Positions 8,944 through 34,771 of a stretch of 64,000 nt of DNA are shown here, one piece after another. The stretch is from positions 5,696,001 to 5,760,000 of the forward strand of contig CAVYRF010000002.1 of NCBI GenBank assembly GCA_963770895.1, in the 5' to 3' direction. Position 1 is the first letter of the stretch. The number at the start of each line of letters is the position of its first letter. The notes under the pieces are model-generated. The model did no database searches. It saw only the letters and a list, made by a program, of their open reading frames with translations, and was not told where the DNA came from. Origin of the DNA: an uncultured Acidobacteriota bacterium (GTDB lineage: Bacteria > Acidobacteriota > Thermoanaerobaculia > Multivoradales > UBA5704). A program made the translations under genes and the position numbers.

Positions 8944-9102
8944 ATGCTTGCGTTGGGTGGGCGGCGGGGTTGAGAGGACGGCCGGCGCCGTGACCTTCCG
9001 GGCTCGGCACCGAGATCCCCCCCTTCCAGGCGCGTAGCGCGCGCCCGCCACGGTGGCGCGTCAGGCGGTCGATCGTTGCCGGCTCACTTCTTCGCAGCAT
9101 GA

Positions 9103-11300: not shown

Positions 11301-11372
11301 TCCCTTCCTCCGTGCGGAGGGGGGGGGAATTTTAGCGTCCAGCATGGGGGGAATTTAGGCGTCTCGCTGACA

Positions 11373-11900: not shown

Positions 11901-12027
11901 CGGCCAGGACCTTGCCGAGCTGGGCCAAGGTCTGCTTACCGTCGATCTTGTTCCCCGAGGATGCAGAAGGAGTAGGGGAGGCCAAGGGGCGGCGCGGTGG
12001 GGAAGCCGGCCGCCCTCCGGGGGGCGG

Positions 12028-12804
12028 TCAGATTTGGGCGGGAGATGCGTACATCAGGGAGCCGGGGGTGGTGAGCAGCTCGCCGGTTTCGAGCAGGGTC
12101 TTGAGGCCCGACAGGATCATGGGCCAGCCACCATAGAGCTGCGCGTTGGCGCCTTCGCGCATCTGGTCGTGGGTCACGGTCAACCGGCATGAATCTTTGA
12201 TCTGCTCGATTTCCCAGGTCACTCGCGAAGCGCCTTCACTCTTCACATCGTCGCCCCAGAGAGCGGTGAAGGTCTGCACCAGACGGCGGGGAGGGTCGAC
12301 TTCCAGGTTGTCGCCTTCGCACAGGAGGCCGGGTGCGTTGGGGGCGCGGCCCACATAGTGAGAGCCGGGCGTCCAATCGGATTCGGCAGCCATGCCGAAG
12401 CTGTACTTGCGCCTCAGGTCAGGGTTGGTGATCGCCTCCCAAAGGCGCTCAGGGGTTGTCTTGATGTAGATCTCGAACACCTTTTCCATGGTTCTGCCCT
12501 CCAAATCGTGTTTAAGGTCGCTCAGGCCAGCGGCCCAAGGCTCGGCGTATTTGCTCACCCAGCGGTCATGGACCAACCGGATCGGGACCGGGTTCAGGAA
12601 ATGCAGTTTTTCGCGGCCCCGCCGTTTGGTGACAACCAACCCAGCCTCTTCAAGCACCCGCAGGTGCTTCATCACCCCAAATCGAGTCATCGGCAGCCGC
12701 TGCTCTAATGCGTTCAACGTCACTCCGTCTTCTACGAAAAGCGCATCCAGCAGGCTTCGACGTGCCGCATTTGCCAGTGCCCTGAACACGTTGTCCTCAT
12801 TCAT
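12028..12804 (-). CDS. ArsR/SmtB regulator fused to SRPBCC (AHSA1-like) domain
   Basis: N-terminal VFRALA...RR..L and KHLRVLEEAGLV; C-terminal TPERLWEAIT and GWPMILSGLKTLLETG. Confidence 0.92.
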   Translation of the reverse strand: MNEDNVFRALANAARRSLLDALFVEDGVTLNALEQRLPMTRFGVMKHLRVLEEAGLVVTKRRGREKLHFLNPVPIRLVHDRWVSKYAEPWAAGLSDLKHDLEGRTMEKVFEIYIKTTPERLWEAITNPDLRRKYSFGMAAESDWTPGSHYVGRAPNAPGLLCEGDNLEVDPPRRLVQTFTALWGDDVKSEGASRVTWEIEQIKDSCRLTVTHDQMREGANAQLYGGWPMILSGLKTLLETGELLTTPGSLMYASPAQI

Positions 12805-12810
12805 GCCGCA

Positions 12811-12840
12811 ATAATAGGTGACTAATTAGTCACCTGTCAA
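12811..12840 (-). promoter_or_regulatory. Sigma70 promoter TTGACA-18-TATTAT (leaderless) with perfect 20-bp operator palindrome AGGTGACTAATTAGTCACCT
   Basis: Palindrome at 12816-12835 fills the spacer; ATG lies 6 nt after the -10 box. Confidence 0.85.
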
Positions 12841-13268
12841 CACACCAACGATCCCGTCATGTGAGCCCCAGCCGCAGGCCCGGTCGGCCAGCGTGGCCCA
12901 AACCTGCGCCGCGGCCCATTGGATCTACCCAGCCGCCGCTCCGTTCCTGGCACAAAGAGCCCCCCCCCCCGCGCTAAGGGGCTTGGTGCCGCATGTCGAG
13001 AGAGCGGCGCCGCCAAGGTCCATGTGTTCCGTATCCAGGAAGGAGGCGCCCTGGAGAATTCGAGAGCTTCGATTTCCTGGCACCTCCAAAGAGCTACGCG
13101 GTGCCTCCGCATAAGATCGAGCCACGGTTGCGTATTCCGGTCGAAGGCGACCATGCCCGGCGTCAACTACACTTGTGCGGCGACGACAATTACACCTGTG
13201 CACCGTGGTAGGGGGCGGGGCGTAGCCCCGCGGGCTTTTTCTTGCTTCAAATTCAGGTAGATATCTCC

Positions 13269-13401
13269 TCGTCGTCGGTCCTGTGGGAGGTGTGCGAAAC
13301 GCGGGTGGGAGGACAGGGGGGCGTTTTGCAAGTCCTGTGGGAAACTGGGAGGGGGTGCGGGTGGGGGACCCAGTTTTCCACAGGGCGTCACCTTCCATAG
13401 G
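13269..13401 (-). ncRNA. Candidate structured element downstream of istB, homologous to 8738-8943
   Basis: CTATGGAAGG...GGAAA..TTTCC..CTTGCAAAA..TTTCGCAC..CCTCCCACAG..CGACGA architecture. Confidence 0.45.
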
Positions 13402-13430
13402 ACGCGCGCCGGCCGATGGAGCGCCAAGTC

Positions 13431-14195
13431 TCATGATTTCTTGGCTTCGGCGCCGCGGGCGGCTGCCTCTTCGGACCGCATACTCGGACCTGTCATCTCC
13501 AGAATGACGGCGTGATGCACCAAGCGGTCGATCGCGGCGGCAGTGGTCATCGGGTTCTTGAAGATCTGATCCCACTGCGAGAAGACCAGATTGCTGGTGA
13601 TCAGGACGCTCTTGCGCTCGTAGCGCTCGGCGAGGAAGGTGAAGAGCACCTCCATCTCCTCGCGGTCTTGCTGGACGTAGCCGAGGTCGTCGACCAGGAC
13701 GGCGTCGAAGGCGTCGAGGCGCCGCAGCTCGGCATCGAGGGCGAGGTCGCGTTTGGCGACCAACAGCCGTTGAACCAGCCGAAAGGCCGGCGTGAAGAGC
13801 ACTTTGTAGCCGCGCTGGACCAGCTCGTGACCGACGGCACACAAGGCGTGGGATTTTCCCCTTCCTGGCAGCCCAAAGGCCAAGAGATTCTCCGCCCGCT
13901 CGACAAAGCCGCCCTCGCACAGGCTTGGCAGAACTCGTCGTACCTTGGCGGGAAGACGGGACAAATCCAGTGTTGTCAGCGTCTTTTCGGCGGGTAGTTG
14001 CGAAGCCCGCCGCAGCCGATCGAGCTTGCGCTGTTGCCGCTCGTCGAGCTCGAGCTGCGTCAAATGGGCCAGGTAGTTTTGGAAGGGCCATCCTCCCTGC
14101 TCAGCCCTCTTCGCCACCTCGTCGTGGTAGGTCACGAACGCCGGCAGCTTGAGCTCTCGCAGCTGGATCGGGAGGCCCGCTGGCGTCGCACTCAT
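13431..14195 (-). CDS. istB: IS21 helper ATPase IstB
   Basis: Motifs GLPGRGKS, VDDLGY and AAIDRLVHH. Confidence 0.95.
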   Translation of the reverse strand: MSATPAGLPIQLRELKLPAFVTYHDEVAKRAEQGGWPFQNYLAHLTQLELDERQQRKLDRLRRASQLPAEKTLTTLDLSRLPAKVRRVLPSLCEGGFVERAENLLAFGLPGRGKSHALCAVGHELVQRGYKVLFTPAFRLVQRLLVAKRDLALDAELRRLDAFDAVLVDDLGYVQQDREEMEVLFTFLAERYERKSVLITSNLVFSQWDQIFKNPMTTAAAIDRLVHHAVILEMTGPSMRSEEAAARGAEAKKS

Positions 14196-15670
14196 GACGC
14201 CACCTGCGCCAGCAGGGCATCGTAGCTGTGGAGGTCGACGACCGGCATCGCAACCTCTGGCACAGTCAGCGACGTCCGTGCCGGTTGCACCAAGCTCTTG
14301 ACGCGCTCGTACAGCGGCACCTCTTCGCTCAACAGATCCAGCGCCGCCTCTACCTCGGACTCCATCGTCGAGGCGGCCAAATGCAGAATCCGCAGATACT
14401 CCAGGTCGGCCCGCGCCGTGGCCTGCGCGCCGTGGAGCTGGTCGTAGGCGCGGCGAAACGCCGGCGTCGGGAACAACTCCTCACGGTACCGGTACCGCGC
14501 GAAGGCGCCGGGCTTGCGCACCAGCGACCAAATCACGTGCCGGTAGTCGATACGGTGACCGTTTTCGCCGCGACGCCGCTCGATCGTCAGCTGGTGCCGG
14601 CCGCCATGGAAGACCTCCAGCCTGGCGTCGAAGATCCGCACGCGCACTCGCTCGCCCTGGAGCCGCGACGGCACCGAGTAGGCGTTGTGTTTGACTCGGA
14701 TCGTGCTCCAGCCGCTGACTCCAACTTCAACCTCGCTGTACTCGGGGAGACGCTCCACGCGCAGCTGGCGCATCGCATCGAGCTCCACCGTCAGCCGCCG
14801 GCTCCGCAGCCGGTTGGCTTTCTCCGTCACCTGCTCAAGCCAAGACTCGTACGCCTCCTGGCTGCCAAACTCACGGCTGCCCCGCAACAGCAGGTGCTGC
14901 TCAAGCCGCCGCTTGAGGGCGCCGTTGAGAGCCTCCACATCGCCATTCTGATGCTTCTGTCCCGGCTCGATAGTCCGCGGCTCCATCCCCAAATGACGCA
15001 TCAACGCCTCGTATTCAGCGTTGAAGCCCCGCTTGCCCGTCCGCAAATCGTGCGTCGCCGCCGTCGAGTTGTCGGTCTGGTGAAAGTGCGCCACCCGACC
15101 CAGCCGGAACACCGCGGCCTGGACGCCGCGGCGCAGCGCCGCCAACGACTCCGAAAAACACACCGTCGGCCACGACCAATTTGAGTACGGCAGCACGACA
15201 TGGCACAGCTGGTGCGGAAACGCCTCTCCGCCGATCGTGATCGCCAACTCCTTGGCCCAGGTGAAGTCGCTCTGTAGCGCCTCCCCTGGACGATGCTCCT
15301 GCGCGAAAAAGACCTCCTTGGCCGGGCCTTCCTGCGCCCGCCATGCCTTCACCCGGCGCTGAAACGTCCGCACCTGGCCAGGCTCGTAGCGGCCCGGCCG
15401 CCGCGACAGCAGATCCTCGAACAGCACCTTCGCCTCCAGCTCCGGCGCATCGGCCAGGCGCTCCACCACCGCCGGCCAATCCTCCACGAACGGGTCGTCC
15501 CGCGTCCGCCACGACCGCGGCTCCTTGACCTCCGAGGGCACCTTGCCCAGGTCCCGGTATCGCCTCGCGGTGTTGCGGTGCAGACCCGCCCGAAGGGCGG
15601 ACAAGCCCACCTTGCCATGTCGCTCCAGCTCTTCCATGAGTCGCCTCACCTGTGCGTCGCTTGTGATCAA
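14192..15670 (-). CDS. istA: IS21 transposase IstA
   Basis: Motifs HRPGEALQSDFT, QTDNS and NGDVE; overlaps istB start. Confidence 0.93.
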   Translation of the reverse strand: MITSDAQVRRLMEELERHGKVGLSALRAGLHRNTARRYRDLGKVPSEVKEPRSWRTRDDPFVEDWPAVVERLADAPELEAKVLFEDLLSRRPGRYEPGQVRTFQRRVKAWRAQEGPAKEVFFAQEHRPGEALQSDFTWAKELAITIGGEAFPHQLCHVVLPYSNWSWPTVCFSESLAALRRGVQAAVFRLGRVAHFHQTDNSTAATHDLRTGKRGFNAEYEALMRHLGMEPRTIEPGQKHQNGDVEALNGALKRRLEQHLLLRGSREFGSQEAYESWLEQVTEKANRLRSRRLTVELDAMRQLRVERLPEYSEVEVGVSGWSTIRVKHNAYSVPSRLQGERVRVRIFDARLEVFHGGRHQLTIERRRGENGHRIDYRHVIWSLVRKPGAFARYRYREELFPTPAFRRAYDQLHGAQATARADLEYLRILHLAASTMESEVEAALDLLSEEVPLYERVKSLVQPARTSLTVPEVAMPVVDLHSYDALLAQVAS

Positions 15671-17959: not shown

Positions 17960-20350
17960 GTGCGCGTCCGCATCAACCGCTACGTCATCACTGAGATCTT
18001 CGGGCCGATGGGCCTTGGGTTCCTAGTCTATACCTTCATCCTGCTGCTCCGATTCCTGTTCCAGTCGGCCGAGATGATCATCCGGCGGGGGCTGCCGGTC
18101 TCCGTGGTGGGCAAGCTCCTGCTGGTGACGCTGCCCAACATCGTGGTCTTGACGCTGCCGATGTCGCTGCTGTTCGGCATCCTGATCGCGGTCGGCCGCC
18201 TTTCGTCGGATAGCGAGCTGACGGCGATGCGCTCGTGCGGCATCAGCCTGGCGTCGCTCTACCGCCCGGTCCTGCTGGTGTCCGGCGTCTTCACCATCTT
18301 GAACGCTCTGCTGATGATCTACGTGCTGCCCTGGGGCAACCACGCGCTGCAGGAGCTGCGGCTGGAGATTCTGACCCAGACCATGTCGCAGCAGGTCGAG
18401 CCGCGGGTCTTCTACCAGGAGTGGGTCGGCAAGTCGATCTACGTGTTCGAGGCTCCCCCGCCGGGCCGGCGCTGGAAGGGCGTCTTCCTGGCCGAGACGG
18501 ACCCCAATACCACCAAGAGCCAGATCACGGTGGCGGATTGGGGCGAGATCAAGGTCGATCCGACCGGCGAGCATGTCGTGCTGTCGCTGACCAACGCGGT
18601 CCGGCACACGGTCGATCTCAACCGTCCTTCGAGCTACGAGATCAGCCGCCACAAGGAGCTGAGCGTCGTCCTGGAGGACCAGTTCACCAGCGAGCAGAAG
18701 GCGAAGATGGCGGCTTCGAAGGGGGTGCGCGAGCTGAGCATGGCAGAGCTGCGCCGCCTGAACCGCAACCGCAACGCTCCCTCCGAGGCGCGCAACCTGG
18801 CCCTGGTGGAGCTCCACAAGAAGTTCTCCATTCCGTTTGCCTGCATGGTGTTCGGCCTGTTCGCCCTGCCTCTGGGGATCAACAATCGCCGCGGCGGCAA
18901 GACCTCGGGGTTTGCCATCTCGATCGGCATCATCGTCGTCTACTACATCATGCTCAACAACGGCGAGGAGGGGGCGCGCTTCGGCAAGTTCCCGCCGTGG
19001 CTTGCGATGTGGATGCCCAACATCCTGCTGACCGTCATCGGTATCTTCATCCTCATCCGCCGCAACGCCGACAAGGGGCTGCTGATCGGCCGCCTGGACC
19101 GCTGGGTGCGCACCGACCTGTGGAGCCGCCTGGCGTGGCTCAAACGCAAGCGGTCCGAGCCGCGGCAGGAGCGGCCGCCGGGCGAGGAGCGCCGCCAGCG
19201 CGCCAGGGCTCCCGCCGCGGGGCCGCGGCTGCTGCTGCGGCTGCCCCGCCTGCGCATCACGTTTCCCAGCCTGCTGGACCGCTACGTGGCATCGGCGTTC
19301 GCGCGGGTCTTCGTGCTGGTCCTGCTGTCGGGCGTGACGATCTTTGTGATCTTCGACCTGACCGAGCGGCTGGACGACATCATCAAGAACAAGGTCGCCC
19401 TGTCGCTGGTCATGAAGTACTACAAGTACCTGTCCATTCAGATCGTGTACCAGATCTCGCCGATCGTGGTGCTGGTGACGACGCTCATGACGTTCGCCCT
19501 GCTCAGCCGCACCAGCGAGATCGTCGCCTGCAAGGCGCTCGGCATCAGCCTGTACCGTCTGTCGCTGCCGGCGCTGGTGGCGGCCCTCCTGATCACGGGC
19601 TTTTCGGGGTACCTGGAGTCCGGCAAGATCCTGGCCGCCGCCAACGAGAAGGTCGCCCAGACCAAGGACCGCATCCAGGGGCGCACCGAAACCCGCTCGT
19701 ACCGGCGCGCCGATCGCCAGTGGCTGTTCGGCCAGGGCCGCTACATCTACAACTACCTCAACTACGACTCCGGCACGACCAGCCTGCAGCGCTTGCAGGT
19801 GTTCGATTTCGATCCGGCGCACCACCTGATCCGCCGCCTGTTCACCGAGAAGGCCAGCTACGTCGGGGACGCCTGGGTGTTCACCAAGGGCTGGGCGCGC
19901 ACCTTCGGGGGCAACTTCCGCATCCGCTACGAACCCTTCGACCAGCCGCGCATCGTGCGCTATCCCGAGACGCCGGCGTACTTCAACTCCGAGATCAAGC
20001 CTCCCGACGAGATGGGCTACCACGAGCTGCAGGACTACATCGACGAGATGGCCGAGAGCGGGCAGCCCGAGCCCGAGCTGCTGGTCAGCCTCTACCAGAA
20101 GGTCGCCTATCCGGTGATCTCCCTGGTCATGGCGCTGGTGGCCCTGCCCTTCGCCTTCCGCCTGGGACGGCAGGGGGCGCTCTACGGAATCGGCCTGTCG
20201 GTGATCCTGGGCTTCGTCTTCATGGCGATCTACGCCTTCTTCACCAAGATCGGCGAAGCCGGCGCGCTCCCGGCCCTGATCGCCGTCTGGAGCCCTGGGA
20301 CCGTCTTCGGCATCCTGTCGGTCTACCTGTTCCTGGGCGTCCGCACCTGA
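17960..20350 (+). CDS. lptF: LPS export ABC transporter permease, LptF-LptG fusion
   Basis: Two YjgP/YjgQ-like halves (GRLSSDSELTAMRSCG and LSRTSEIVACKALG); TATAAT 6 nt before the GTG. Confidence 0.92.
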   Translation: MRVRINRYVITEIFGPMGLGFLVYTFILLLRFLFQSAEMIIRRGLPVSVVGKLLLVTLPNIVVLTLPMSLLFGILIAVGRLSSDSELTAMRSCGISLASLYRPVLLVSGVFTILNALLMIYVLPWGNHALQELRLEILTQTMSQQVEPRVFYQEWVGKSIYVFEAPPPGRRWKGVFLAETDPNTTKSQITVADWGEIKVDPTGEHVVLSLTNAVRHTVDLNRPSSYEISRHKELSVVLEDQFTSEQKAKMAASKGVRELSMAELRRLNRNRNAPSEARNLALVELHKKFSIPFACMVFGLFALPLGINNRRGGKTSGFAISIGIIVVYYIMLNNGEEGARFGKFPPWLAMWMPNILLTVIGIFILIRRNADKGLLIGRLDRWVRTDLWSRLAWLKRKRSEPRQERPPGEERRQRARAPAAGPRLLLRLPRLRITFPSLLDRYVASAFARVFVLVLLSGVTIFVIFDLTERLDDIIKNKVALSLVMKYYKYLSIQIVYQISPIVVLVTTLMTFALLSRTSEIVACKALGISLYRLSLPALVAALLITGFSGYLESGKILAAANEKVAQTKDRIQGRTETRSYRRADRQWLFGQGRYIYNYLNYDSGTTSLQRLQVFDFDPAHHLIRRLFTEKASYVGDAWVFTKGWARTFGGNFRIRYEPFDQPRIVRYPETPAYFNSEIKPPDEMGYHELQDYIDEMAESGQPEPELLVSLYQKVAYPVISLVMALVALPFAFRLGRQGALYGIGLSVILGFVFMAIYAFFTKIGEAGALPALIAVWSPGTVFGILSVYLFLGVRT

Positions 20351-20537
20351 AGCCCGCGGCGGCCTGACGGCACTCCCCTCCCCCGCTACCCCCTGCGACT
20401 CTGCAGACTACGGAAACCAGGGGGGGCCTTTGGCAGGCCCGGAGCGAGGGACGGAGCTTGGCCGAGCTTTCAGGAAATAGACCGGGACTTGGGGAAAGGC
20501 TCCAAAGAAAGAAGCCCGGAGAGCCTTCAGGTTCAGT

Positions 20538-22553
20538 TCAGGTCTTGCTGGGCGTGAAGCGCATGCTGGGGGCGTTGCGGGCCTGCTGGAGGAAGGAGGA
20601 GACTTCCCGGACCAGGTTGAGGCCGGCCTGGTCGGCGCGGGCGGCGTCGCAGAAGACGAGATAGGCGGCCATGGCTTCGCGGTGCAGCTGGCGCGCCTCG
20701 AAGAAGTTGACCATCTGGTGGGCAAGCAGGCGCATCTCCGCGGTCTTGCCTTGCTGTGCAAGGATGACTGCCAGGTCGAGGCTGGCCAGTGCTGCGTCGT
20801 AGGCGTGGCCGCCTTCGACGAACGCTTCGCTCACTTCGCGGTAGGCTGCTTCGGCCTGGTCCAGGCGATTCATGCCGTGGGCGACCTGGCCTTCGACCCA
20901 GCGCAAGCGCAGCAGGCTCCAGCGGTCGCCCATTTTGAGGTAGAGCGGGCGGGTGTGGAACAGCAGCGCAAACGCCTCCCGCGGACAGCCGTCGGCGAGC
21001 AGGGTGACGATGATGTTGTGGCGCACGGCCAGGAACCAGCGCGCATCCGTCTGCGGATCGATCAGGTTGAGCGCGCGCTGCAGCAGGGCCAACCTGCCTT
21101 TGAGGTCTCCCTGGTGGCCCAGCACGATCGCCTTGAGGTTGAGCGCGCGGCCCAGCAGGCCCCGCTGCCCCAGCCTGCCGTAGATGGCGATGACGCGATC
21201 CAATAGCCGGGCGGACGTTTCGAGCTGCCGCAGCCCCAGGTAGAAGGACGCTTGCAGGTCGAGCACCCGCGCCTTGTCGAGCGGACCGATCGACGGATAC
21301 GCCACCAGCTGTGCCTCCGCCGCTTCGAACGCCTTGCCAGCGCCGTCCATGTCCGTCAGGACGCGCAACGCGTTGCCGAACTGGGCATGGGCGCGAGCGG
21401 CAAGGCCGGCCAGCAGCGCCAGGTCGCCAGCGGGACAGAGGGCGAAGGCATCGTGAGCGCAGTCGCCGTCGATGTCGTCGGCGGTGGTCATTGCAGGGAG
21501 TGCCGCCAACGCCGACGTCGGCAGCGGCTCCGGGCGGTCTTGCCGATCGCGCTGCACCGCTTGCCTTGCCGCGAGGATGCGCCCCGAGATCTCCACCGCC
21601 AGCTGTGCCAGGTGGGCGCTGCCGGTGCCGTCGCGGAAGACTTCGTCGCGGCTGGCGTTGAGCAGCTCTTCGCACAGGAACCGGTCGCTGAAGCGGGCGC
21701 TGTTGCGCACCAGGAGACCCTGCCGCGTCGGCGGATGCTGCATCAACTCTTCGAAGAGCTCGCGCCCACGCCGGCGCGAAGCTTCGATGACCGCTTCGGC
21801 GGGAGTGACGCGAGAGAAGACGCGATCGAGCACCTGATCGTAGGAGGTGTTGTGCGAGGTCGCGGCAGGCTGCGGCGATGGAATCGATGGAGCGTTTGCC
21901 GCACCAGCGGCCGCCAGGCCTGGCCGTCGCCGGATTGGCTCATCCTGCCTGACCAGCGCGGCTCTGGCGCGCGTGGGACCGGTGGCGCCGGTGGCGCCGG
22001 CCGTGCCGTTGACGGCCCGGTCGAGACGCGAGAAGCCACCGCGGCGAACCGACGCAGCTGCGACGCTGCCCAACTCGGCAAAGGCGCGCGGCAGGGCAAG
22101 CGGCCCCGGCGCGCTCAGCGAGCCGGCCGCGGTCAGCGCGGCCATCGCAGTGGTGGCAGCCGTGGCGGTGATCGCGATGTTTGCGACGTTTGCGGGGATC
22201 GCGCTCAACTCAGCCGGCGCTTCGACCGTGCCATCGGCGCCCTGAACTGCAAGGCCGCCTGACAGTTCGAGCACCGCGGCGATTGCCGGCGGGTCGAGGT
22301 TCCACACTTCGCGGGCCTGCGCCTGGCATGGGAGGCACCCTGCCAACAGGTGGCGCAGCACCTGCTGCACTTCCCCCGCGGGGAGGGTCCCCAGCATGAA
22401 ACCGCGCAACGCCTGCACCTGGACGTGCACCGCCAGGTCGACGGCTGGCGCATCTTCGCGGTCAGGCGATGTCGGAGGGGGCGGGGGCGAGGCCAGGAGC
22501 GAGGCCGGCGGCAGGGCCGGGGGCGGTGACGCCAGCTTGGAATCGTCGATCAT
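20538..22553 (-). CDS. Soluble protein with N-terminal ZAS-like zinc anti-sigma motif, low-complexity linker and C-terminal TPR array
   Basis: H-x24-H-x4-C-x2-C (HV...RHLLAGCLPC); Ala/Leu-rich helical repeats; ATG overlaps the sigma stop codon. Confidence 0.75.
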   Translation of the reverse strand: MIDDSKLASPPPALPPASLLASPPPPPTSPDREDAPAVDLAVHVQVQALRGFMLGTLPAGEVQQVLRHLLAGCLPCQAQAREVWNLDPPAIAAVLELSGGLAVQGADGTVEAPAELSAIPANVANIAITATAATTAMAALTAAGSLSAPGPLALPRAFAELGSVAAASVRRGGFSRLDRAVNGTAGATGATGPTRARAALVRQDEPIRRRPGLAAAGAANAPSIPSPQPAATSHNTSYDQVLDRVFSRVTPAEAVIEASRRRGRELFEELMQHPPTRQGLLVRNSARFSDRFLCEELLNASRDEVFRDGTGSAHLAQLAVEISGRILAARQAVQRDRQDRPEPLPTSALAALPAMTTADDIDGDCAHDAFALCPAGDLALLAGLAARAHAQFGNALRVLTDMDGAGKAFEAAEAQLVAYPSIGPLDKARVLDLQASFYLGLRQLETSARLLDRVIAIYGRLGQRGLLGRALNLKAIVLGHQGDLKGRLALLQRALNLIDPQTDARWFLAVRHNIIVTLLADGCPREAFALLFHTRPLYLKMGDRWSLLRLRWVEGQVAHGMNRLDQAEAAYREVSEAFVEGGHAYDAALASLDLAVILAQQGKTAEMRLLAHQMVNFFEARQLHREAMAAYLVFCDAARADQAGLNLVREVSSFLQQARNAPSMRFTPSKT

Positions 22554-23080
22554 GAGGTCTTCTTGCCGGCCATTCCGGTGGCGGTGAGTTGGCGGGTCAG
22601 GGCAGCGAGGCAGCGATTGGTGGTCTTGCTGATGCTGGTGGGGCTGTACCCCAGACGCTTTGCCAGTTCCGGCGGCTCATAGCCCTGGCTGTAGCGCAGC
22701 AGCAACAGGGCGCGGCAGCGGGTCGGCAAACGTTCGATCGCCATGATCAGATCGCGCCGCAGATCGGCGTCTTCCTGCTCGGGAGCCATCGGCTCGGCCA
22801 TGAATTCAAGCACTGCAGCATCGACGGCATCATATAATTTACGGCGATGCTCGCGCCAGTACAGCAGGCACTTATTTCTAAGTGTGCCGATCAGCCATGC
22901 CTCGTGGTCACGGATCGCGTGCCGCTGGTAGACCAGCGCGAGCAAGGCCTGCTGCAGGATGTCTTCGGTGTCCTGCGGGGGAATGCGGTAATGCGCGAAC
23001 AGCGCCTTCATCCGCGGGCGGACGGATTTCAGAAACTGATCGAAGCTGGTTTCGGCTTCAGAGATATCGGCTGCGCTCAT
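22550..23080 (-). CDS. ECF-type sigma-70 factor, paralog 1
   Basis: Region 2 QDTEDILQ..AWL...NKC..YWR; region 4 RCRALLLLRY.QGY...ELA..LG. Confidence 0.88.
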   Translation of the reverse strand: MSAADISEAETSFDQFLKSVRPRMKALFAHYRIPPQDTEDILQQALLALVYQRHAIRDHEAWLIGTLRNKCLLYWREHRRKLYDAVDAAVLEFMAEPMAPEQEDADLRRDLIMAIERLPTRCRALLLLRYSQGYEPPELAKRLGYSPTSISKTTNRCLAALTRQLTATGMAGKKTS

Positions 23081-23267
23081 AAACAAACACGTCTAAATTG
23101 TGCCCACCATAGCATCTGTGGGGAGCCGTGTCCAGAAGACACAGCTCTCCCCATCTCGACGCGATGCGAACGCCGCAGAGTCTCTTCAAGAGCTACGGGA
23201 CGGCGAGGAGCACCGGGTCGGCGGTCAGCCCACCTCCGCCCTCCCCTCACCGGAGAAGGAGGGGGAA

Positions 23268-23471
23268 CTAGCCGCCGCCGTTGGGGTCCATGCTGATCCC
23301 GAAATCGGAGAACATGTTGGCCAGGCCGTTGATCACGCTGGCCAGCTGCTGCATCAGGCGGGAGCCGGCACTGGCCGCGGTCGGCCGATGGGTGCCGCAG
23401 AACGCGGAAGCAGGGGCGAGGGCGGCGACCAGGGTGACGATGGCAACGGTACGGCGCAAGGAAGTCTTCAT
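23268..23471 (-). CDS. Small secreted peptide (67 aa) ending GISMDPNGGG
   Basis: Strong RBS GAGGAG; Sec signal MKTSLRR-TVAIVTLVAALAP-ASA; GC3-rich codons. Confidence 0.8.
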   Translation of the reverse strand: MKTSLRRTVAIVTLVAALAPASAFCGTHRPTAASAGSRLMQQLASVINGLANMFSDFGISMDPNGGG

Positions 23472-23570
23472 GACTTGATACTCCTCTGGGGTTTCCCGAC
23501 GCTTCAGGCGCCGGTAAATAGCAATCTAGCTCTAAGCTACGTTGCCGCTGGACCATCCGGAGAGACAGAC

Positions 23571-23910
23571 ATGTGGTCACAGCCTGGTGGCCAAGCGTCG
23601 CCAGCCCTGGCCCGACGCGCCGTCCACCGCCACAAGCTACCCTCCTTGCAAGCCGAAGACCTGATCCTGCAATGGTTTGCAAGAGGCAAGGCGCTCCAGA
23701 AGGGTTTGCGGGCGGCGAGGCGCGCTCTGGGGGAGGCTTGGCGGGCGCTACCGGGCTCGCGAACCGAGAACGCCGACGGCGCCAATCGGCATGCTGGTCC
23801 CGTTCGGCCTGCGGTTCAACGGGCTGGCGGCCAAGGTGAACCACCTGGCGCTGCTTGTGGTCGTAGCCATGGACTTCCGCATCGAGTTTCGCGACGTGCC
23901 GGTGACGTGA
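23571..23910 (+). pseudogene. Possible small frameshifted gene divergent from the peptide gene
   Basis: GGAG RBS before ATG 23571; gene-like codon usage switches frame near 23785. Confidence 0.35.
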
Positions 23911-24085
23911 CCACCCTGACAGGGCGCCCCTGGCGCACCGCTCACAGGCACAGTGATCGCCGGCGGGCGCGGCAGCGTGCCAGCGAACGATCGGCTGATC
24001 TACGGATTTTGGTCAGGCGGAAAGCGCAGACTCGCCCCTACAGGCCCATTGAGGGTCTGGATCGTAGGGGCGAGGCACCGCGGGT

Positions 24086-24649
24086 CTAGTCGTCCTTGAG
24101 AGCGGCTTCCGGCTGCGAATGGAAGCGTGCCCCAAGGAGGCGCTCTGAGAGCGCGGCGAGACAACGATGGGTCACCTTGCGAATGCTCGACTGGCGATAG
24201 CCCGTCCGTTCGGCGGCCTCGGCGGTGCTGCAGCCCAGCCCATAACGCAGGCGCAGGACCGAACGACAACGGTCCGGGAGCTGGGACAGCAGGGTGTCGA
24301 GATCGGCGCGAAGATCGGAACGATCCTGGGCGGGCGTTTCTGCCTCGGCCAGGAGCTCCAGGATGGTGCTGTCCACCAGGTCCCAGAGACGGCTGCGATG
24401 CTTTCGCCAGTAGATGATGCAGCGGTTGGCCAGCGTTGCCAGCAGCCACGCTTCGGGATTACGGATGCTGCCTGACTTCGAGACCATGATCAGGAAGGTC
24501 TCTTGCAGGAGGTCGTCCGCGTCCTGAAGCGGGATGCGATGGCGCCACAATACCCTCTTCAGCTTCGGCTCTACGTTGTGGAGGATCTGCTCCAGAGAGG
24601 GCTCCTCCACAGGTGGCACTTGGTAGCTCATGCTAGTAGTGAAAACCAT
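24086..24649 (-). CDS. ECF-type sigma-70 factor, paralog 2 (start may be 24631)
   Basis: Motifs QDADDLLQ, NRCIIYWR, RCRSVLRLRYGLG and HRCLAAL. Confidence 0.88.
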   Translation of the reverse strand: MVFTTSMSYQVPPVEEPSLEQILHNVEPKLKRVLWRHRIPLQDADDLLQETFLIMVSKSGSIRNPEAWLLATLANRCIIYWRKHRSRLWDLVDSTILELLAEAETPAQDRSDLRADLDTLLSQLPDRCRSVLRLRYGLGCSTAEAAERTGYRQSSIRKVTHRCLAALSERLLGARFHSQPEAALKDD

Positions 24650-24817
24650 CTATACATGAAAATGTACCAAGGTTTTCCCTCCAATGTCTAGGGGGACGCT
24701 CCGACAGGATCGTAACACTTTGTTGGCAGCTCTGGGCGACCCGACGCCGGGGCGCGAGGGATGCGCAGGATGCCGCATCGGGAATCGTCGCTGAGGCAGC
24801 TTTTGCGGCGATCGGAG

Positions 24818-25342
24818 TCATGGCTTCCGCTCGTAGCCGACGGCCAGCAGCTGGCGGGTCAAGGCTGCCAGGCACCGGTTGGTCACCTTGCGGATGCTGG
24901 ACGACCGGTAGCCCATCCGCTCCGCCACTTCGTTGGGTCCGTACCCCAGGCCGTACCGCAGGCACAGCAGCGAGCGGCAGCGGGTCGACAGCCGCGACAG
25001 CACGCGATTGAGGTCGAGCGTCAGGTCGTCTTTCTCCTGACGCGGCGCCTCGGGGGTCGAGATCAGATCCAGGATGGCGGCATCCACCGCCTCGCAAAGG
25101 CTGCCCCGCCGTTTGCGCCAGTACATGATGCACTTCTTCTTGACAGTGCCGACCAGCCAGTTCTCGGGGCTGTGGATCTTTTCCCATTTGTAGAGCAGCG
25201 TCAGCTGGGCATCCTGCAAGATGTCTTCGGCGTCTTCGGGCGGAATCTCAAACCCCCGCAGCACCCGCTCCAAACGCGGACGAGTGCTCTTGAGGAGGTT
25301 ATTGAGCGATTCCCGCAGCTCTGGATGGTCCAGGGTCGTCAT
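24818..25342 (-). CDS. ECF-type sigma-70 factor, paralog 3
   Basis: Motifs EDAEDILQ, KKCIMYWR, RCRSLLCLRYGLGY and NRCLAAL. Confidence 0.88.
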   Translation of the reverse strand: MTTLDHPELRESLNNLLKSTRPRLERVLRGFEIPPEDAEDILQDAQLTLLYKWEKIHSPENWLVGTVKKKCIMYWRKRRGSLCEAVDAAILDLISTPEAPRQEKDDLTLDLNRVLSRLSTRCRSLLCLRYGLGYGPNEVAERMGYRSSSIRKVTNRCLAALTRQLLAVGYERKP

Positions 25343-25717
25343 GTCACCCTAAATCTGAGTCTTCGTGCATTGGTAGGCTAACACCTGCATCGCACCCTTG
25401 TCTACCTTTTTGAGGCCTCACGGCCACCAAGTAGCCGCTTTTTTGGGTCACGTCGGGCCACTGGCCGTCGCACCTGGGCTCCGAAACTGGATGCCCTTAG
25501 GGGTTAACCCGATCGACGGGTGTGACAACTGCTCCTTGGGTGACCAGCGGCGGCGCCGTCCTGGCGACGGGCAGCCACCGCGTGGTCCGGGCGCGGCGGG
25601 GACCGCCAGCGGCTGCGTGGGCTCCCCCGGGGCGCTTCCACGACGGCCCCGAGGCGCGCACACCGCGGGGCCGTCTCTGCTGCGATGCCCGCCGCCCTGC
25701 GGCGGCGAGCCGCTGGA

Positions 25718-27001
<1,284 letters not shown>

Positions 27002-31446: not shown

Positions 31447-34053
31447 TCATTGGTGAAGCCGGAAGGTGAAAGGCAGCTCGGTCCACATCTTGCCGGGGAT
31501 GCCGTCGCGGGTGGCGGGATTGAATTGCGCCTGCATCGCGGCCTGGCGGGCGGCGACGTTGAAGCCCAGGCTGCCGGGGTCGTCGGTTTTCTTGACGATG
31601 GTCTGGATGACGTGGCCGGTTTCGTCGACCAACACCAGGATCAACACCTCGGCCTCCACCTGCCGCCGCCGCGCCCGGTCGGGATAGGTCGGCTCGGGCC
31701 GGCTGACCAGCCGCGGCGGCACGGCGCCCGGAGCGCCGGGCTCGATGAGGTCGCCGCGAGCCATCGGGCGGTGCGCCGCCGCGCCGTCCGTGGCGCCGGC
31801 CGCGCTGCCCGCACCGCCCATGCCGCCATGAACGCCGGCGTCCGGCGATGCCGCCGCTCGCGCCGCGGTCTCGGCGCCGGGGCCGGGCGCGGTCCCGGCG
31901 GCAGGATTTGCCGGCGGCGGCGGGGCACCGCCATCGGCGCCGCCGCTGCGCATCGGCGGCGCCGGACCCGCCAGACCCGCCAACCGTTCGAACGGCAGGC
32001 TGTTGGAGGCGCTGTCGGCGCCATCGCCGGCGGCCGTATTGGCGCCTCGCGGCGCGGACGCGCCGCCCGCCACCCGATCCGCACCGACCGGCTGCGCGGC
32101 GGCGGCCGGCGGGCGACTCGACCCTGCCTGCGGCGCCAGCACCGACGGCAGCAGCGCATGGCCGCCCTGCGGCAGGCTCTCCATCCGCGGCGCCGCCGCC
32201 GCGCCTGGCACCACCGGTGCCGGCCGCGCCGGGACCGGCGCCGCTGCGGTCGACGCCTGCCCCGCGGCAACCGGCCTGGCCCCGGCCGGCGCCGGTCCGC
32301 CGGGCGTCGTGCCCGGCTGCACCGGGGCTCCGCCCGCGCCGGGGCTGCCGGGCGGGCCGGACCTGGCCGCTGTGCCCGGCGGCTCCGCCGTGCCCGCGCC
32401 GCCGCCTGGCTGCGGCCCTGCGCCGACAGTGCCGGACGGGTCCGTCCCTCCCCCGCCGGGGCGGTCGGCGACCTGTCCCGCACCGCCAGCCGCGGATGCC
32501 GCCGGCACCGGCGCTGGTCCGCGCCGCCACAGCCGCCAACCCGAGCCGCCCATCGCCACGGCGAGGATGGCCGCCGCCGCGACGGCAGTCCCGATCACCG
32601 CCCGCCGGCCGCGCCGGCCGCCCCTCGCGGCCCCGGCGATGGCCGCGTCCACACGATCGTCGCCGGCTGCCCGACGGGACGCGGGCGATGCTGCCGCCGC
32701 TTCCGCAGCGCCTGGCTGCGCCAACGCCAGGTCTACCGCCGACCGGCCGCTCCTGGTGGGCCGATGGAACCCCGGCACAGCCGTCGCCACTGTCGGCGCC
32801 GGCTGCTCGGCATGCCCATCCGCCGGCGTCGCCGGCGCTGGCGCCGCGACCGCACCGGACACGGGCGCGCCGGCGCGCGATGCCGCCGGACCGACCGGCG
32901 CGGCTGGCGCGACCGGCCCGTTGCCTCCGGCGATCGCGGCGGACCCCGCCGCCTGCGCGGCCGCCACTGCGCCGCTGGTGGCGGCGGCGCCGGCGACCAG
33001 GAAGGCGCCCGAGCGCAGGGCTTCGATTTCGGGTTCGATGGCGGCGACGACGACGCCGAAGCTTGCGGGCCGCAGCGCCGGGTCCTTGGCCAGGCAGCGG
33101 CTGGCCAGGTCGGCGATGGCCGCGCCGCAGGTGGGGGCGAGGCTGGCCAGCGCCTGCGGCTCTTCGTTGAGCAGCCGGTAGGACACCTCGGAGAAGGTGC
33201 TGCCCTTGAAGGGGCGCTCGTAGGACATCAGCTCGTAGATCAGGACGCCGAAGGAAAAGATGTCGGTGCGCTGGTTCACTTCGTCGCCGCGCAGCTGCTC
33301 GGGGGCGAGGTAGCCCACGGTGCCCAGGGTGACCCCCTGGGTGGTGACGTCGGAGACTTCGTGCAGCAGCTTGGCGATGCCGAAGTCCATGATCTTGACA
33401 CCGCCGGCCGGCAGGCTGCGGATGTTGGCCGGCTTGATGTCGCGGTGCAGCACCCCCTGGGCGTGCGCGTACTCCAGGCCGCGCGCCACCTGCACCAGGA
33501 TGTCGAGCCGCTGCAAGGCGGTGAGCGGCTCGCGCCGGCCGATCTTGTGGTGGAGGTCTTCGCCCTCGAGGAATTCCTGTACCAGGTAGGGGATGCCGCG
33601 CTCGACGCCGAGGTCGTGGACGGTGGTGATGTTGGGGTGCTGCAGGGCGGCGGCGATCTGCCCTTCGCGAAAAAACCGCCGGCGCAGCTTCTCGTTGCTC
33701 GACGAGCAGGTCTTGACCGCGACGTAGCGTTGCAGCACCGGGTCGCGGCCCTTGTAGACGATGCCGAAACCGCCTTCGCCGATGCGCCCCAGGATCTCGT
33801 ACTTGCCGATCTTGCCGATCGCCTCCAGCTCATCCGGCTTTTCGGCCAGCAGCAGGTCCGAGCCGCGCCGGATGGCCTTCTCGATGAAGGTGCCCGCTTC
33901 GACGTCCGAGCGCAGCAGGCTCTCCACCTCCTGCCGCAGTGGGCCGTCGCCGCCGCACTCGCGGGCCAGGAACGCCTGCTGCTCGGCAGGCGCCAGGTCG
34001 GCGGCGGCCTCGAACAGCTCCTGCACCCGCGCCCAGCGCTCGCCCCCGATCAC
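31447..34053 (-). CDS. Membrane Ser/Thr protein kinase with C-terminal TonB_C domain
   Basis: Kinase motifs GEGGFG, VAVK, HRDIKPAN, DFG and YLAPE; one transmembrane helix; C-terminal PEPTYP..ARR..VEAEV...VDETG...FNPA..DG.P; GTG overlaps the ECF stop codon. Confidence 0.9.
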   Translation of the reverse strand: MIGGERWARVQELFEAAADLAPAEQQAFLARECGGDGPLRQEVESLLRSDVEAGTFIEKAIRRGSDLLLAEKPDELEAIGKIGKYEILGRIGEGGFGIVYKGRDPVLQRYVAVKTCSSSNEKLRRRFFREGQIAAALQHPNITTVHDLGVERGIPYLVQEFLEGEDLHHKIGRREPLTALQRLDILVQVARGLEYAHAQGVLHRDIKPANIRSLPAGGVKIMDFGIAKLLHEVSDVTTQGVTLGTVGYLAPEQLRGDEVNQRTDIFSFGVLIYELMSYERPFKGSTFSEVSYRLLNEEPQALASLAPTCGAAIADLASRCLAKDPALRPASFGVVVAAIEPEIEALRSGAFLVAGAAATSGAVAAAQAAGSAAIAGGNGPVAPAAPVGPAASRAGAPVSGAVAAPAPATPADGHAEQPAPTVATAVPGFHRPTRSGRSAVDLALAQPGAAEAAAASPASRRAAGDDRVDAAIAGAARGGRRGRRAVIGTAVAAAAILAVAMGGSGWRLWRRGPAPVPAASAAGGAGQVADRPGGGGTDPSGTVGAGPQPGGGAGTAEPPGTAARSGPPGSPGAGGAPVQPGTTPGGPAPAGARPVAAGQASTAAAPVPARPAPVVPGAAAAPRMESLPQGGHALLPSVLAPQAGSSRPPAAAAQPVGADRVAGGASAPRGANTAAGDGADSASNSLPFERLAGLAGPAPPMRSGGADGGAPPPPANPAAGTAPGPGAETAARAAASPDAGVHGGMGGAGSAAGATDGAAAHRPMARGDLIEPGAPGAVPPRLVSRPEPTYPDRARRRQVEAEVLILVLVDETGHVIQTIVKKTDDPGSLGFNVAARQAAMQAQFNPATRDGIPGKMWTELPFTFRLHQ

Positions 34054-34655: not shown

Positions 34656-34771
34656 GCGCTTCGGGCCTGCGGCGGCGACGGGCTGAGGTGCCGCGACGGT
34701 CGCCTTGCGGCGACGCAATACTACCCCCGGCCGGCACGCGCGCGCAGCGCGCGGATGGTTTCCAGCTATAG

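Follow-up and report, generated by a model that had tools for sequence, protein, structure and literature searches.

A conserved cluster of ECF sigma, small-peptide and ZAS-like/TPR genes in Thermoanaerobaculia as a candidate peptide-responsive switch

In a 64,000-nucleotide stretch of DNA from an uncultured acidobacterium of the class Thermoanaerobaculia (contig CAVYRF010000002.1, positions 5,696,001 to 5,760,000; hereafter the window), five co-directional minus-strand open reading frames (ORFs) form a cluster that encodes three extracytoplasmic function (ECF) sigma factors (sigma3, sigma2 and sigma1), a 67-aa peptide with a signal-peptide-like start, and a 671-aa protein in which a domain resembling the zinc-binding anti-sigma (ZAS) factors is followed by a tetratricopeptide repeat (TPR) domain. 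The cluster recurs in related genomes and holds two distinct classes of promoter-like sites, one upstream of the sigma genes and the other upstream of the peptide gene. We propose that it represents a sigma/anti-sigma switch in which the TPR domain reads a processed and re-imported peptide derived from the tail of the exported precursor, the peptide gene being itself under the control of a sigma factor; the probability that we assign to this reading is roughly 0.4. Among ECF sigma/anti-sigma systems it would represent a new variant, for which the sensing of a peptide is plausible. A literature search, with supplements outside its reach, returned no description of such a module and nothing that pairs Thermoanaerobaculia with 'sigma factor', and the combination of 'RRNPP' (the peptide-sensing systems compared below) and 'ECF sigma' led only to papers on C. 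difficile.

Three ECF sigma genes and a coupled ZAS-like/TPR gene

A sequence-only reading of the window had placed the genes on the minus strand in the order sigma3, sigma2, peptide, sigma1 and 671-aa protein, and all five ORFs were confirmed at the coordinates it gave (Table 1). One scan of species-representative genomes yielded 65 related loci (denoted by L numbers), which together with the window make up 66 sources. The order sigma3-(TPRb)-sigma2-peptide-sigma1-TPRa-(TPRc) recurs in these 65 loci, which belong to Thermoanaerobaculia genomes. According to the mapping of the 65 loci, the TPRa gene follows sigma1, as the gene of the 671-aa protein does in the window, and the TPRb gene follows sigma3, both proteins carrying the His/Cys motif described below. 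The clade of the window has neither TPRb nor TPRc, so that one anti-sigma-like protein faces three sigma factors there. As far as named records show, the module is chromosomal and confined almost entirely to the class Thermoanaerobaculia, and the conserved features of the cluster exceed chance.

All three sigma factors consist of Pfam Sigma70_r2 plus r4/r4_2, the region 2 and region 4 composition of ECF sigmas, and reach 58, 69.7 and 63 bits against the NCBIfam sigma70-ECF superfamily model TIGR02937 (cut-off 42.9), while no NCBIfam sigma subfamily model reaches its cut-off for any of them. With a mutual identity of 47-51%, they are indeed the paralogs that the sequence-only reading had taken them for, and no further copy of the family is found elsewhere within the 64-kb window. 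Among solved structures, sequence comparison links sigma1 to CnrH only (4cxf_A, E 4e-4). The longest ORF of sigma1 begins at a TTG, with an ATG present two codons further in. A FastTree phylogeny of 148 sigma proteins resolves three orthogroups of 57 (sigma1), 49 (sigma3) and 42 (sigma2) rows, whose branches have Shimodaira-Hasegawa (SH)-like supports of 98 for sigma1 and 99 for both sigma2 and sigma3. Sigma2 is the best conserved, the window copy being 97% identical to that of L058, while the best identities are 85% for sigma1 (L001) and 89% for sigma3 (L005). In most relatives a ZAS-TPR gene of its own, TPRb, comes after sigma3; the window has no TPRb, and neither sigma2 nor the sigma3 of the window adjoins an anti-sigma gene. 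Sigma2 thus stands out as the most conserved sigma, with no neighbouring anti-sigma gene and with a position directly upstream of the peptide gene.

The sigma genes are preceded by promoter-like sites of the sigma-70 type, defined here by the pattern T[GAT]GAC[AT]-N16-19-TAnnnT preceded by TGn. The pattern is found upstream of sigma3 in 49/49, of sigma2 in 37/43 and of sigma1 in 56/57 cases, that is, before 142/149 sigma genes; these account for 142 of its 160 occurrences on both strands of the loci, and it precedes 0/46 peptide genes. An extended -10 element is a feature of promoters read by housekeeping sigma factors, while ECF sigma genes are commonly, although not universally, autoregulated positively from an ECF-type promoter. 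Given their extended -10 promoters of the sigma-70 type, the sigma genes of the cluster look constitutively transcribed rather than autoregulated. In particular, the motif that is typical of the peptide genes (see below) occurs upstream of just 1/149 sigma genes.

The 671-aa protein is translationally coupled to sigma1. Its ATG overlaps the sigma1 TGA (ATGA), as the sequence-only reading had noticed, and the arrangement is general in the family: a sigma gene lies directly upstream of 82/87 family ZAS-TPR genes, with 72 of the 82 starts overlapping the sigma stop, mostly by 4 or 8 nt, and the other 10 lying within 15 nt. The same reading had recognized the spacing H-x24-H-x4-C-x2-C near the N-terminus, which corresponds to H43-x24-H68-x4-C73-x2-C76 and is present as H-x~24-H-x4-C-x2-C in 87/117 family ORFs. 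Residues H68, L69, L70, C73, C76 and W84 are invariant in 27 homologues, in which H43 is at least 90% conserved; in an alignment of 35 N-terminal fragments both H43 and the H-x4-C-x2-C spacing are invariant. The fourth ligand, H43, falls 24 residues before H68, within the 23-26 residues of the ZAS rule, while the remainder of the motif is one residue longer than the canonical H-x3-C-x2-C. Among 145 more distant representatives, the x4 spacing is found in 81, the canonical x3 in 29, and neither in 35; the count for the canonical H-x3-C-x2-C is also given as 26/145.

The assignment of this domain as a ZAS, made from the sequence alone, has held in part. When a profile of the 35 N-terminal fragments was compared with the PDB, the five best matches were all ZAS anti-sigma chains, namely DdvA (8rlz_A, E 2.9e-4), full-length DdvA (0.0074), RslA (3hug_B, 0.012) and ChrR (2q1z_B, 0.016 and 0.017), followed by unrelated zinc fingers at E >0.7. 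Each of the four displayed ZAS alignments carries a one-residue gap at the ligand stretch (HL-xxC). The motif is not in the canonical form: the spacing differs and the N-terminal fragment of the window has no match to Pfam zf-HC2, for which 22/35 relatives show sub-threshold matches (best 0.0037); PF13490 is precomputed on four relatives. AlphaFold2 predicts N-terminal helices at residues 46-53, 59-71, 74-84 and 88-97, with a predicted local distance difference test (pLDDT) score of about 80. From these comparisons the domain appears to be a divergent ZAS-like anti-sigma domain, which would bind zinc and capture sigma1.

It could be argued that the His/Cys motif is instead a zinc knuckle with a structural role, in a TPR protein that acts as a scaffold or co-activator and merely shares the operon of sigma1, a view with which the departure from H-x3-C-x2-C, the missing zf-HC2 match of the window fragment, the modest E-values of the PDB profile matches (2.9e-4 to 0.017) and the occurrence of the protein without an adjacent sigma gene in L061, L062 and L065 would agree. 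Such a role is quite improbable, since the alignments with the five ZAS chains span helices 1-3 and take in the ligand residues, 72/82 pairs are translationally coupled to an ECF sigma gene, some family members do carry the canonical motif or PF13490, and the first-His spacing of x24 equals that of ChrR.

The remainder of the protein consists of a linker, which is conserved in neither length nor sequence and is absent in the homologues P0052 and P0053, and of a large helical domain. In the AlphaFold2 model (mean pLDDT 73.4 for the whole protein), residues 232-658 are predicted as all-helical repeats with pLDDT mostly >90 and with helix pairs over residues 374-658; many residues of this domain are invariant, e.g. 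REAFALLF.TRPLYL. A Foldseek comparison of the model with the PDB gave 71 matches at E<=0.001 and, among the matches listed, all are TPR proteins, with the TPR domain of LGN/Pins as the best (E 1.2e-6) and with the Rap structures 4gyo_A, 4i1a_B, 3ulq_A and 8rte_B at E 7.5e-5 to 4.5e-4; the template modelling (TM) score by target is 0.63 for the RapJ-peptide complex 4gyo_A. The TPR-like helices that had been read from the sequence are thus supported by both the model and its matches. On the window protein Pfam gives sub-threshold matches only (TPR_16 and TPR_12), while PF13424 is precomputed for most homologues and PF17874, a MalT-like TPR region, for many relatives. The highest 19-residue Kyte-Doolittle mean of the window protein is 1.46; values >1.6 occur in 8/53 homologues, always in TPR helices that bear charged residues or in Ala/Pro-rich linkers. 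Since no hydrophobic segment is conserved across the 53 homologues, the protein is taken to be soluble, which agrees with the lack of an obvious transmembrane segment reported from the sequence.

The family to which the 671-aa protein belongs is large. A word-indexed search returned the 53 relatives, which are called 'TPR repeat protein' or 'hypothetical protein' where the source gives a name and which, where an organism is named, come from metagenome-assembled genomes of Thermoanaerobaculia or Acidobacteria. An exhaustive profile search extended the family to 7,955 representative clusters at E<=0.001, with 2,545 at E<=1e-30, the taxonomy of the latter being deduced solely from the names of the returned relatives; the names returned with a more distant member point almost throughout to Thermoanaerobaculia and in one case to a Gemmatimonadales bin. 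Downstream of TPRa, at about 9400-10900 in L012, L016, L017, L035, L036, L037, L047, L048, L052, L053 and others, there is a third paralogue, TPRc. In hhalign, the N-terminus of TPRc proves homologous to the ZAS-like domain (98.2%, E 4.8e-14), with the His/Cys ligands replaced (R..LL..W), and no sigma gene precedes it.

The peptide family, its promoter motif and its linkage to TPR genes

In nearly every locus, the gap before sigma1 holds a plus-strand ORF whose start resembles a signal peptide and whose tail has the form [IMW]-D-x-[NDE]-G. A regular expression for the tail matched 97/8,076 ORFs, 44 of which (from 43 sources) lie at the expected site with the motif near the C-terminus. A hidden Markov model built from these 44 candidates recovers 47 ORFs at E<0.02, and 46 of these have a start codon and a Shine-Dalgarno sequence 5-18 nt upstream, with AAGGAG present in 39/45 non-redundant upstream regions. 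Three further main-site genes were found via the promoter motif (L028, L043 and L025), and one is cut by a contig end (L009). Overall, the main-site peptide gene is present in 48 of the 66 sources and deleted in 9, while the site is uncovered in 5 (L014, L042, L055, L059 and L064) and the other 4 are distant TPR loci; the gene is therefore present at 48/57 loci that cover the site.

In the alignment of the peptides, M1, D62 and G65 are invariant and a twin-arginine (RR) pair is at least 90% conserved. The tail motif coincides with the exact C-terminal end (Gly) in 21/44 candidate ORFs, and in 12 loci the tail unit [I/M/W]-D-x-[N/D/E]-G, and no other part of the peptide, is repeated two to three times in tandem; in L044, for instance, SKLGVRIDDNG occurs three times. 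The residue x of D-x-N-G has changed at least 11 times on the TPRa tree. The mature region ahead of the tail contains an amphipathic-looking helix with a conserved Trp. In four comparable pairs of peptide genes, the ratio of nonsynonymous to synonymous change (pN/pS) is 0.27-0.52. A database search returned 38 relatives, all 'hypothetical' or unnamed and with no Pfam domain, and the 67-aa peptide itself belongs to no Pfam or NCBIfam family. The secreted DPNG-type peptide that the sequence-only reading had singled out is thus a member of a real gene family, with a conserved D-x-N-G tail and a signal-peptide-like start.

Taken alone, the 67-aa ORF is not significant, as many longer spurious ORFs overlap the region in this DNA of 66% GC. 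A chance, untranslated ORF in a GC-rich spacer would be expected to have such company, spurious ORFs of similar or greater length, and to lack a match in Pfam and NCBIfam. That the ORF is of this kind is nevertheless barely conceivable: there are 46 homologous ORFs with a Shine-Dalgarno sequence, a signal-peptide-like start and an invariant tail; its GC content at third codon positions (GC3) is 0.88, in the range of real genes (0.75-0.94) and unlike the overlapping long ORFs (0.54-0.62); and the 38 related proteins had been called genes by other annotators. It is the recurrence of the 46 ORFs, together with the GC3 value and a dedicated upstream motif, that sets the ORF apart from chance.

Judged by inspection, the N-terminus resembles a signal peptide, and the precursor would be exported. 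The near-invariant arginine pair of the n-region (R6 and R7 in the window) suggests that export could proceed via twin-arginine translocation (Tat) rather than Sec. A further feature concerns the chemistry of the tail. Asp-Pro or Asp-Gly and Asn-Gly bonds are among the chemically most labile peptide bonds, being prone to acid cleavage and succinimide formation, and the tails (e.g. MDPNG, window residues 61-65) join an Asp-Pro or Asp-Gly bond with an Asn-Gly bond; that spontaneous or assisted N|G cleavage could release the repeat units is pure speculation. Two other readings of the peptide were set aside. For a ribosomally synthesized and post-translationally modified peptide, neither the flanks of seven loci nor the window show a conserved modifying enzyme, transporter or protease; for a calcium-binding motif of the RTX or EF-hand type, the periodicity and ligand positions of D-G-N-G do not fit when inspected against the known motifs.

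Upstream of the peptide genes, a bipartite motif of the form TGTC[TC]-N14-16-CGGnAAC was sought within 120 nt of the start. It precedes 44/46 peptide genes, ending 52-83 nt ahead of the ATG. On both strands of the 927,217 bases, the motif has just five further occurrences, three of them ahead of peptide genes that had initially been missed. In the window alone, with one mismatch allowed, the count of the motif equals the chance expectation, and its significance therefore derives from conservation across loci. Since the peptide genes have this private motif and no promoter of the housekeeping type, they are most likely targets of at least one ECF sigma factor of the cluster. A canonical ECF reading, with CGGnAAC as the -35 element and a CGT-type -10, finds no support, since CGT or C[AG]TC is found 14-19 nt downstream in only 2-5/44 sites, which is the chance level, and a sigma-54 reading (GG-N10-GC) was rejected on inspection of the logo.

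Searches for RNA elements in this region were negative. An Rfam scan of positions 20000-26000 returned no family except for one sub-threshold chance match to a miRNA, RNAalifold on 24 peptide leaders predicted 0 pairs and hence no conserved RNA structure, and a hairpin 3' of the peptide stop is no more stable than shuffled sequences (z = -0.37). The spacer between the sigma2 stop and the peptide promoter (23568-24085) exceeds that of relatives by about 300 nt, with 615 nt up to the ATG in the window as against about 150-380 nt elsewhere; neither the fetched loci nor other parts of the window contain a homologous stretch.

The linkage between peptide and TPR genes extends beyond the main cluster. 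The four distant TPR homologues, which are 28-37% identical and all have the x4 motif, each have an ORF with a signal peptide and a tail directly upstream. These tails read ...TIDPNA...AADPNGAL in L061, ...SVDPWG in L062 and ...SMLDPNG in L065, while the unit DNRGxIDP[DN]G occurs three times in L063. In L061, L062 and L065 the TPR gene has no full ECF sigma gene of the family at its side: the order is sigma-54 activator, peptide and ZAS-TPR in L061 and L062, and peptide and ZAS-TPR in L065, while in L063 a short sigma-like ORF separates the peptide gene, with its three tail repeats, from the TPR gene. Additional peptide-like ORFs are found ahead of sigma3-TPRb in L023 and L025. The neighbourhood co-occurrence that the sequence-only reading had proposed as a check thus extends from 48/57 covering loci to 4/4 distant TPR loci, and the pairs that occur with no full ECF sigma gene adjacent point to a small exported peptide plus a ZAS-TPR protein as the recurring core.

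With regard to these distant loci, a sigma-54 enhancer-binding protein, a peptide-like ORF and a ZAS-TPR gene make up a minimal module with no ECF sigma at positions 6185-9386 of L061 and 5-2840 of L062, and a similar sigma-54 activator lies just upstream of the full cluster in L010. Bacillus Phr peptides are matured by subtilisin-type proteases; in L062, a gene for a 929-aa subtilase (Peptidase_S8; 6611-9400, minus strand) lies 3.8 kb downstream of the peptide-TPR pair, and a subtilase gene of this kind is not conserved in the other loci.

The proposed switch and its alternatives

On the basis of these data, the module may work as follows. Each of the three ECF sigma factors would be transcribed from its own extended -10, sigma-70-type promoter, and sigma1 would be made together with a soluble, cytoplasmic anti-sigma factor of two domains, of which the small N-terminal His/Cys helical domain would hold sigma1 while the TPR superhelix, placed on a flexible linker, would act as the sensor. 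The peptide gene between sigma2 and sigma1 would be a target of one or more of the cluster sigmas. Its product, a pro-peptide, would be exported via the signal peptide, and its functional part would be the C-terminal ...G-x-[R/Q]-[I/M]-D-x-N-G. The short peptide released from it would then, most likely, re-enter the cell and bind the TPR domain, and the binding would change, in one direction or the other, the hold of the anti-sigma domain on sigma1. If the peptide gene is sigma-dependent, the proposed arrangement amounts to an autoinduction loop. A signalling pro-peptide fits the tandem tail units of 12 loci, the private promoter motif and the adjacency of peptide and TPR genes where no full-length sigma gene is found. 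A more specific version is held only tentatively: it sees the module as a peptide-pheromone autoinduction system in a diderm outside Bacillota, in which the imported peptide acts directly on the availability of an ECF sigma, the sigma transcribes the pro-peptide gene, the pro-peptide supplies one to three copies of a core with D-x-N-G at its end, the variable residue x defines pherotypes, and the logic of RRNPP systems has been reached by convergence.

The main alternative, to which we assign a somewhat lower probability, accepts the sigma/anti-sigma pair and regards the peptide gene as its regulated target, with a product that acts outside the cytoplasm and is not the TPR ligand. The peptide could then be a signal for a membrane receptor, an antimicrobial or surface-active peptide, or a periplasmic factor, and the TPR domain could respond to a protein partner, to a small molecule as in MalT-type TPR sensors, or, via the Cys pair, to redox changes as RsrA does. 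The private promoter motif indeed makes the peptide gene look like a target, and a regulator beside its target is a common arrangement that alone accounts for the adjacency, including that in L061, L062 and L065. The clade with no peptide gene retains its sigma/anti-sigma pairs, PF17874 on many relatives recalls MalT, no importer gene is found in the flanks of seven loci or in the window, and the amphipathic-looking helix with its conserved Trp would suit a peptide with an external function. However, the 12 repeat loci multiply the short tail and not the helix, which is more in keeping with a short signal that is set free than with a peptide of structural or lytic function, and the peptide ORF stays directly upstream of ZAS-TPR genes that have no adjacent full-length ECF sigma gene, so that its neighbour there is the receptor-like protein.

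The place where the peptide would be met by its receptor allows for yet another possibility, in which the TPR domain binds the tail or the twin-arginine region of the precursor within the cytoplasm, and unexported precursor signals a block of Sec or Tat and frees the sigma factor. Import would be unnecessary, since a cytoplasmic receptor would meet the peptide in the compartment where it is synthesized, and both the near invariance of the RR pair in the n-region and the lack of an importer gene nearby (in the flanks of the seven loci and the window) would be accommodated. Such monitoring of export is improbable: tandem tails and ORFs that end exactly in ...NG suggest a processed product, and a positive loop acting on a stress reporter would be odd.

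Several points weigh against the re-imported peptide as the ligand of a ZAS-TPR switch. Besides the non-canonical spacing of the His/Cys motif and the missing zf-HC2 match of the window fragment, no oligopeptide importer, exporter or protease is conserved beside the cluster in the flanks of seven loci and in the window. Nine species have neither the peptide gene nor its motif and keep the order sigma3-TPRb-sigma2-sigma1-TPRa; they form one clade on the TPRa tree (support 99) in which the spacer between sigma2 and sigma1 is only 75-109 nt long and holds the sigma1 promoter alone, which indicates that the switch can exist with no locally encoded peptide. The similarity of the modelled fold is unspecific, as LGN and designed TPRs outscore Rap and the TM scores by target are 0.5-0.63, and no RRNPP receptor (Rap/Rgg/NprR/PlcR/PrgX/AimR) is found among the sequence matches of the TPR protein. 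The private motif matches no sigma consensus among those compared. A comparison of residue x of the tail (G versus not G) with columns of the TPRa alignment offers 4-6 independent pairs, with which p 0.05 is unreachable. In a diderm, moreover, a peptide exported by Sec or Tat reaches the periplasm, and signalling from cell to cell needs further steps. Finally, the flanks of most loci consist of housekeeping genes in a conserved order (metK, NDH2, lptFG, PTPS and parAB; also ahcY), so that much of the linkage within the cluster, and of the co-occurrence described above, stems from shared descent at one chromosomal site in one class; L010 has the full module between other flanks, with the sigma-54 activator upstream and BREX genes downstream. 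All in all, the architecture, the peptide family and their linkage, as proposed in the sequence-only reading, have stood; the His/Cys motif is not the canonical one, no kinship with RRNPP receptors beyond a generic TPR fold was found, and in the seven flanks and the window no importer or processing protease is conserved nearby.

The question is of general interest as bacteria transduce signals to a large extent via ECF sigma factors, for most groups of which the signal is unknown and few soluble anti-sigma factors are understood. The large family described here (2,545 representative clusters at E<=1e-30) offers a defined candidate ligand that is encoded next door and cheap to synthesize, which makes the question of what the anti-sigma factor senses directly testable. 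If the peptide is indeed the ligand, quorum sensing by re-imported oligopeptides would extend beyond the Gram-positive Bacillota to the abundant and hard-to-culture soil Acidobacteriota, and synthetic biology would gain an orthogonal switch made of sigma, anti-sigma and peptide. Should the peptide serve as an output only, its motif-defined promoter and repeated core would still mark a new family of secreted peptides under the control of an alternative sigma factor.

The coordinates of the features are collected in Table 1.

Table 1. Features of the cluster, in positions of the 64,000-nucleotide window
Feature	Position	Strand	Basis or remark
ECF sigma factor sigma3, 174 aa	24818..25342	-	Pfam Sigma70_r2 + r4; TIGR02937, 58 bits
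ECF sigma factor sigma2, 187 aa; no anti-sigma gene adjoins it	24086..24649	-	Pfam Sigma70_r2 + r4; NCBIfam ECF
ECF sigma factor sigma1, 178 aa, in translational coupling with the gene of the 671-aa protein	22550..23086	-	Pfam + NCBIfam
67-aa pro-peptide ORF: n-region RR, hydrophobic h-region, ASA|F-like cleavage site, variable middle, tail ...GISMDPNGGG	23268..23471	-	
Soluble ZAS-like/TPR protein, 671 aa, putative anti-sigma of sigma1	20538..22553	-	
N-terminal ZAS-like domain, residues 43-97 (H43, H68, C73, C76; four predicted helices)	22263..22427	-	
Variable low-complexity linker, residues 99-229	21867..22259	-	pLDDT <50
TPR-like superhelical domain, residues 232-658, ~430 aa, proposed sensor	20580..21860	-	AlphaFold2, Foldseek
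Bipartite motif TGTCTC-N14-CGGCAAC, at 69 nt from the peptide ATG on its 5' side; candidate promoter for an alternative sigma factor	23541..23567	-	Exact match
Shine-Dalgarno GAGGAG, 9 nt before the peptide ATG	23481..23486	-	
Sigma-70-type promoter-like site before sigma3, TAGACA-18-TAGCCT, with TGn ahead of hexamer 2	25375..25404	-	Read from sequence
Sigma-70-type promoter-like site before sigma2, TAGACA-18-TACATT, with TG	24661..24690	-	Consensus scan
Sigma-70-type promoter-like site before sigma1, TGGACA-17-TATGGT, with TG	23106..23134	-	Consensus scan
Terminator-like hairpin and T-rich run just 3' of the anti-sigma stop	20512..20526	-	Weak: scan gives 3 sites vs 3.3 expected in region

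Outside the cluster, the window is that of a diderm with a GC content of about 68% and contains, within its 64 kb, lptFG, a TonB_C domain, an outer-membrane barrel, parB, metK, ahcY, nusA and infB. PADLOC defence models gave zero matches among the five cluster proteins. LptF and LptG are fused into a 796-aa permease with two LptF_LptG stretches (17960-20350, plus strand), and LptF-LptG fusions of 802-921 aa adjoin the cluster also in L003, L005, L016, L022, L031 and L035. A 1096-aa protein (31447-34737, minus strand) shows the unusual pairing of a Ser/Thr protein kinase domain with a C-terminal TonB_C, and a 1238-aa protein (55178-58894, minus strand) joins a retropepsin-like aspartyl protease domain to a C-terminal PDZ domain. 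An ORF at 12925-15670 (minus strand) matches the Mu-transposase C-terminal domain; several ORFs at 7689-14091 belong to no family, and 12028-12804 matches AHSA1 and HTH_20. This stretch, bounded by parB on one side and by the PTPS/lptFG block on the other, probably represents a mobile element that was inserted there.

Comparison with known systems

The closest parallel for the peptide side of the module is provided by the RRNPP(A) systems of Bacillota (Rap-Phr, NprR-NprX, PlcR-PapR, ComR-XIP and AimR-AimP). These consist of two adjacent genes, for a pro-peptide and an intracellular receptor (PMC10075063), and the available text of two sources describes signalling by re-imported ribosomal peptides for Bacillota only (PMC11343458, PMC10075063). 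As in those systems, a small pro-peptide gene lies near the gene of a cytoplasmic TPR protein, with sigma1 intervening at the 48/57 covering loci and in direct adjacency in L061, L062 and L065. The pro-peptide likewise combines an export signal with a conserved C-terminal unit that is in tandem in some members (PMC11343458, PMC10075063), tandem cores being known from Phr pro-peptides of RRNPPA systems (PMC11343458). Control of an alternative sigma factor also has a precedent in streptococci, where XIP, the 'sigX inducing peptide', belongs to a system of this kind (PMC4497675). In both cases the peptide gene has its own regulated promoter, or what appears to be one here, and Rap structures are among the fold matches. 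In contrast to RRNPP(A) receptors, the output domain is a ZAS-like anti-sigma domain and not a helix-turn-helix or phosphatase domain, the host is a diderm acidobacterium, and import and binding of the peptide are features that the module would have by analogy. The sequence-only reading had pointed to RRNPP receptors as a parallel; nothing beyond the generic TPR fold speaks for a kinship, Rap ranking below generic TPR proteins. Neither homology nor output domain places the 671-aa protein among the RRNPP members, and the motif rule does not make it a canonical ZAS.

Among soluble anti-sigma factors, RsrA, the partner of sigmaR (ECF12), is a redox-sensing ZAS with no membrane anchor and a single small domain. 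The 671-aa protein is similar to it in being soluble and ZAS-like, and its Cys pair could in principle sense oxidation, but it adds a large and well-conserved TPR domain. In the available text of the ECF reclassification, TPRs are mentioned only as a C-terminal extension in ECF42 and in a FecR-like protein of ECF267, and Casas-Pastor et al. consider that soluble anti-sigma variants are probably under-detected (PMC7826278).

The combination of a ZAS with a TPR is known from DdvA, the anti-sigma factor of DdvS in Myxococcus xanthus, which joins a zinc-bound anti-sigma domain (ASD) to a TPR-containing sensor (PMC11506125) and whose ASD (8rlz_A) is, among solved structures, the closest to the N-terminal domain (E 2.9e-4). 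DdvA is, however, a single-pass membrane protein with a periplasmic TPR-CHAT region and is thought to act through regulated proteolysis (PMC11506125), whereas the 671-aa protein has neither a membrane segment nor a CHAT domain and its TPR would be cytoplasmic.

The ChrR-sigmaE pair of Rhodobacter sphaeroides (ECF11) also features a soluble cytoplasmic anti-sigma factor that is encoded with its ECF sigma. The zinc ligands of ChrR are His6, His31, Cys35 and Cys38, and its four-helix ASD is connected by a flexible linker to a C-terminal sensor domain that is needed for release (PMC6852236). Both the first-His spacing, His6-x24-His31 in ChrR and H43-x24-H68 here, and the succession of N-terminal ASD, linker and C-terminal sensor are shared, ASD and sensor being putative in the 671-aa protein (PMC6852236). 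The differences lie in the sensor, which is a TPR superhelix of ~430 aa here and a cupin in ChrR, in the H-x4-C-x2-C motif as compared with H-x3-C-x2-C, in the signal, for which an exported peptide is the candidate here, and in the sigma genes, which have sigma-70-type promoters and no evident autoregulated ECF promoter. Collectively, these comparisons indicate that, in its architecture of a soluble ASD followed by a sensor domain, the module is most like ChrR-sigmaE.

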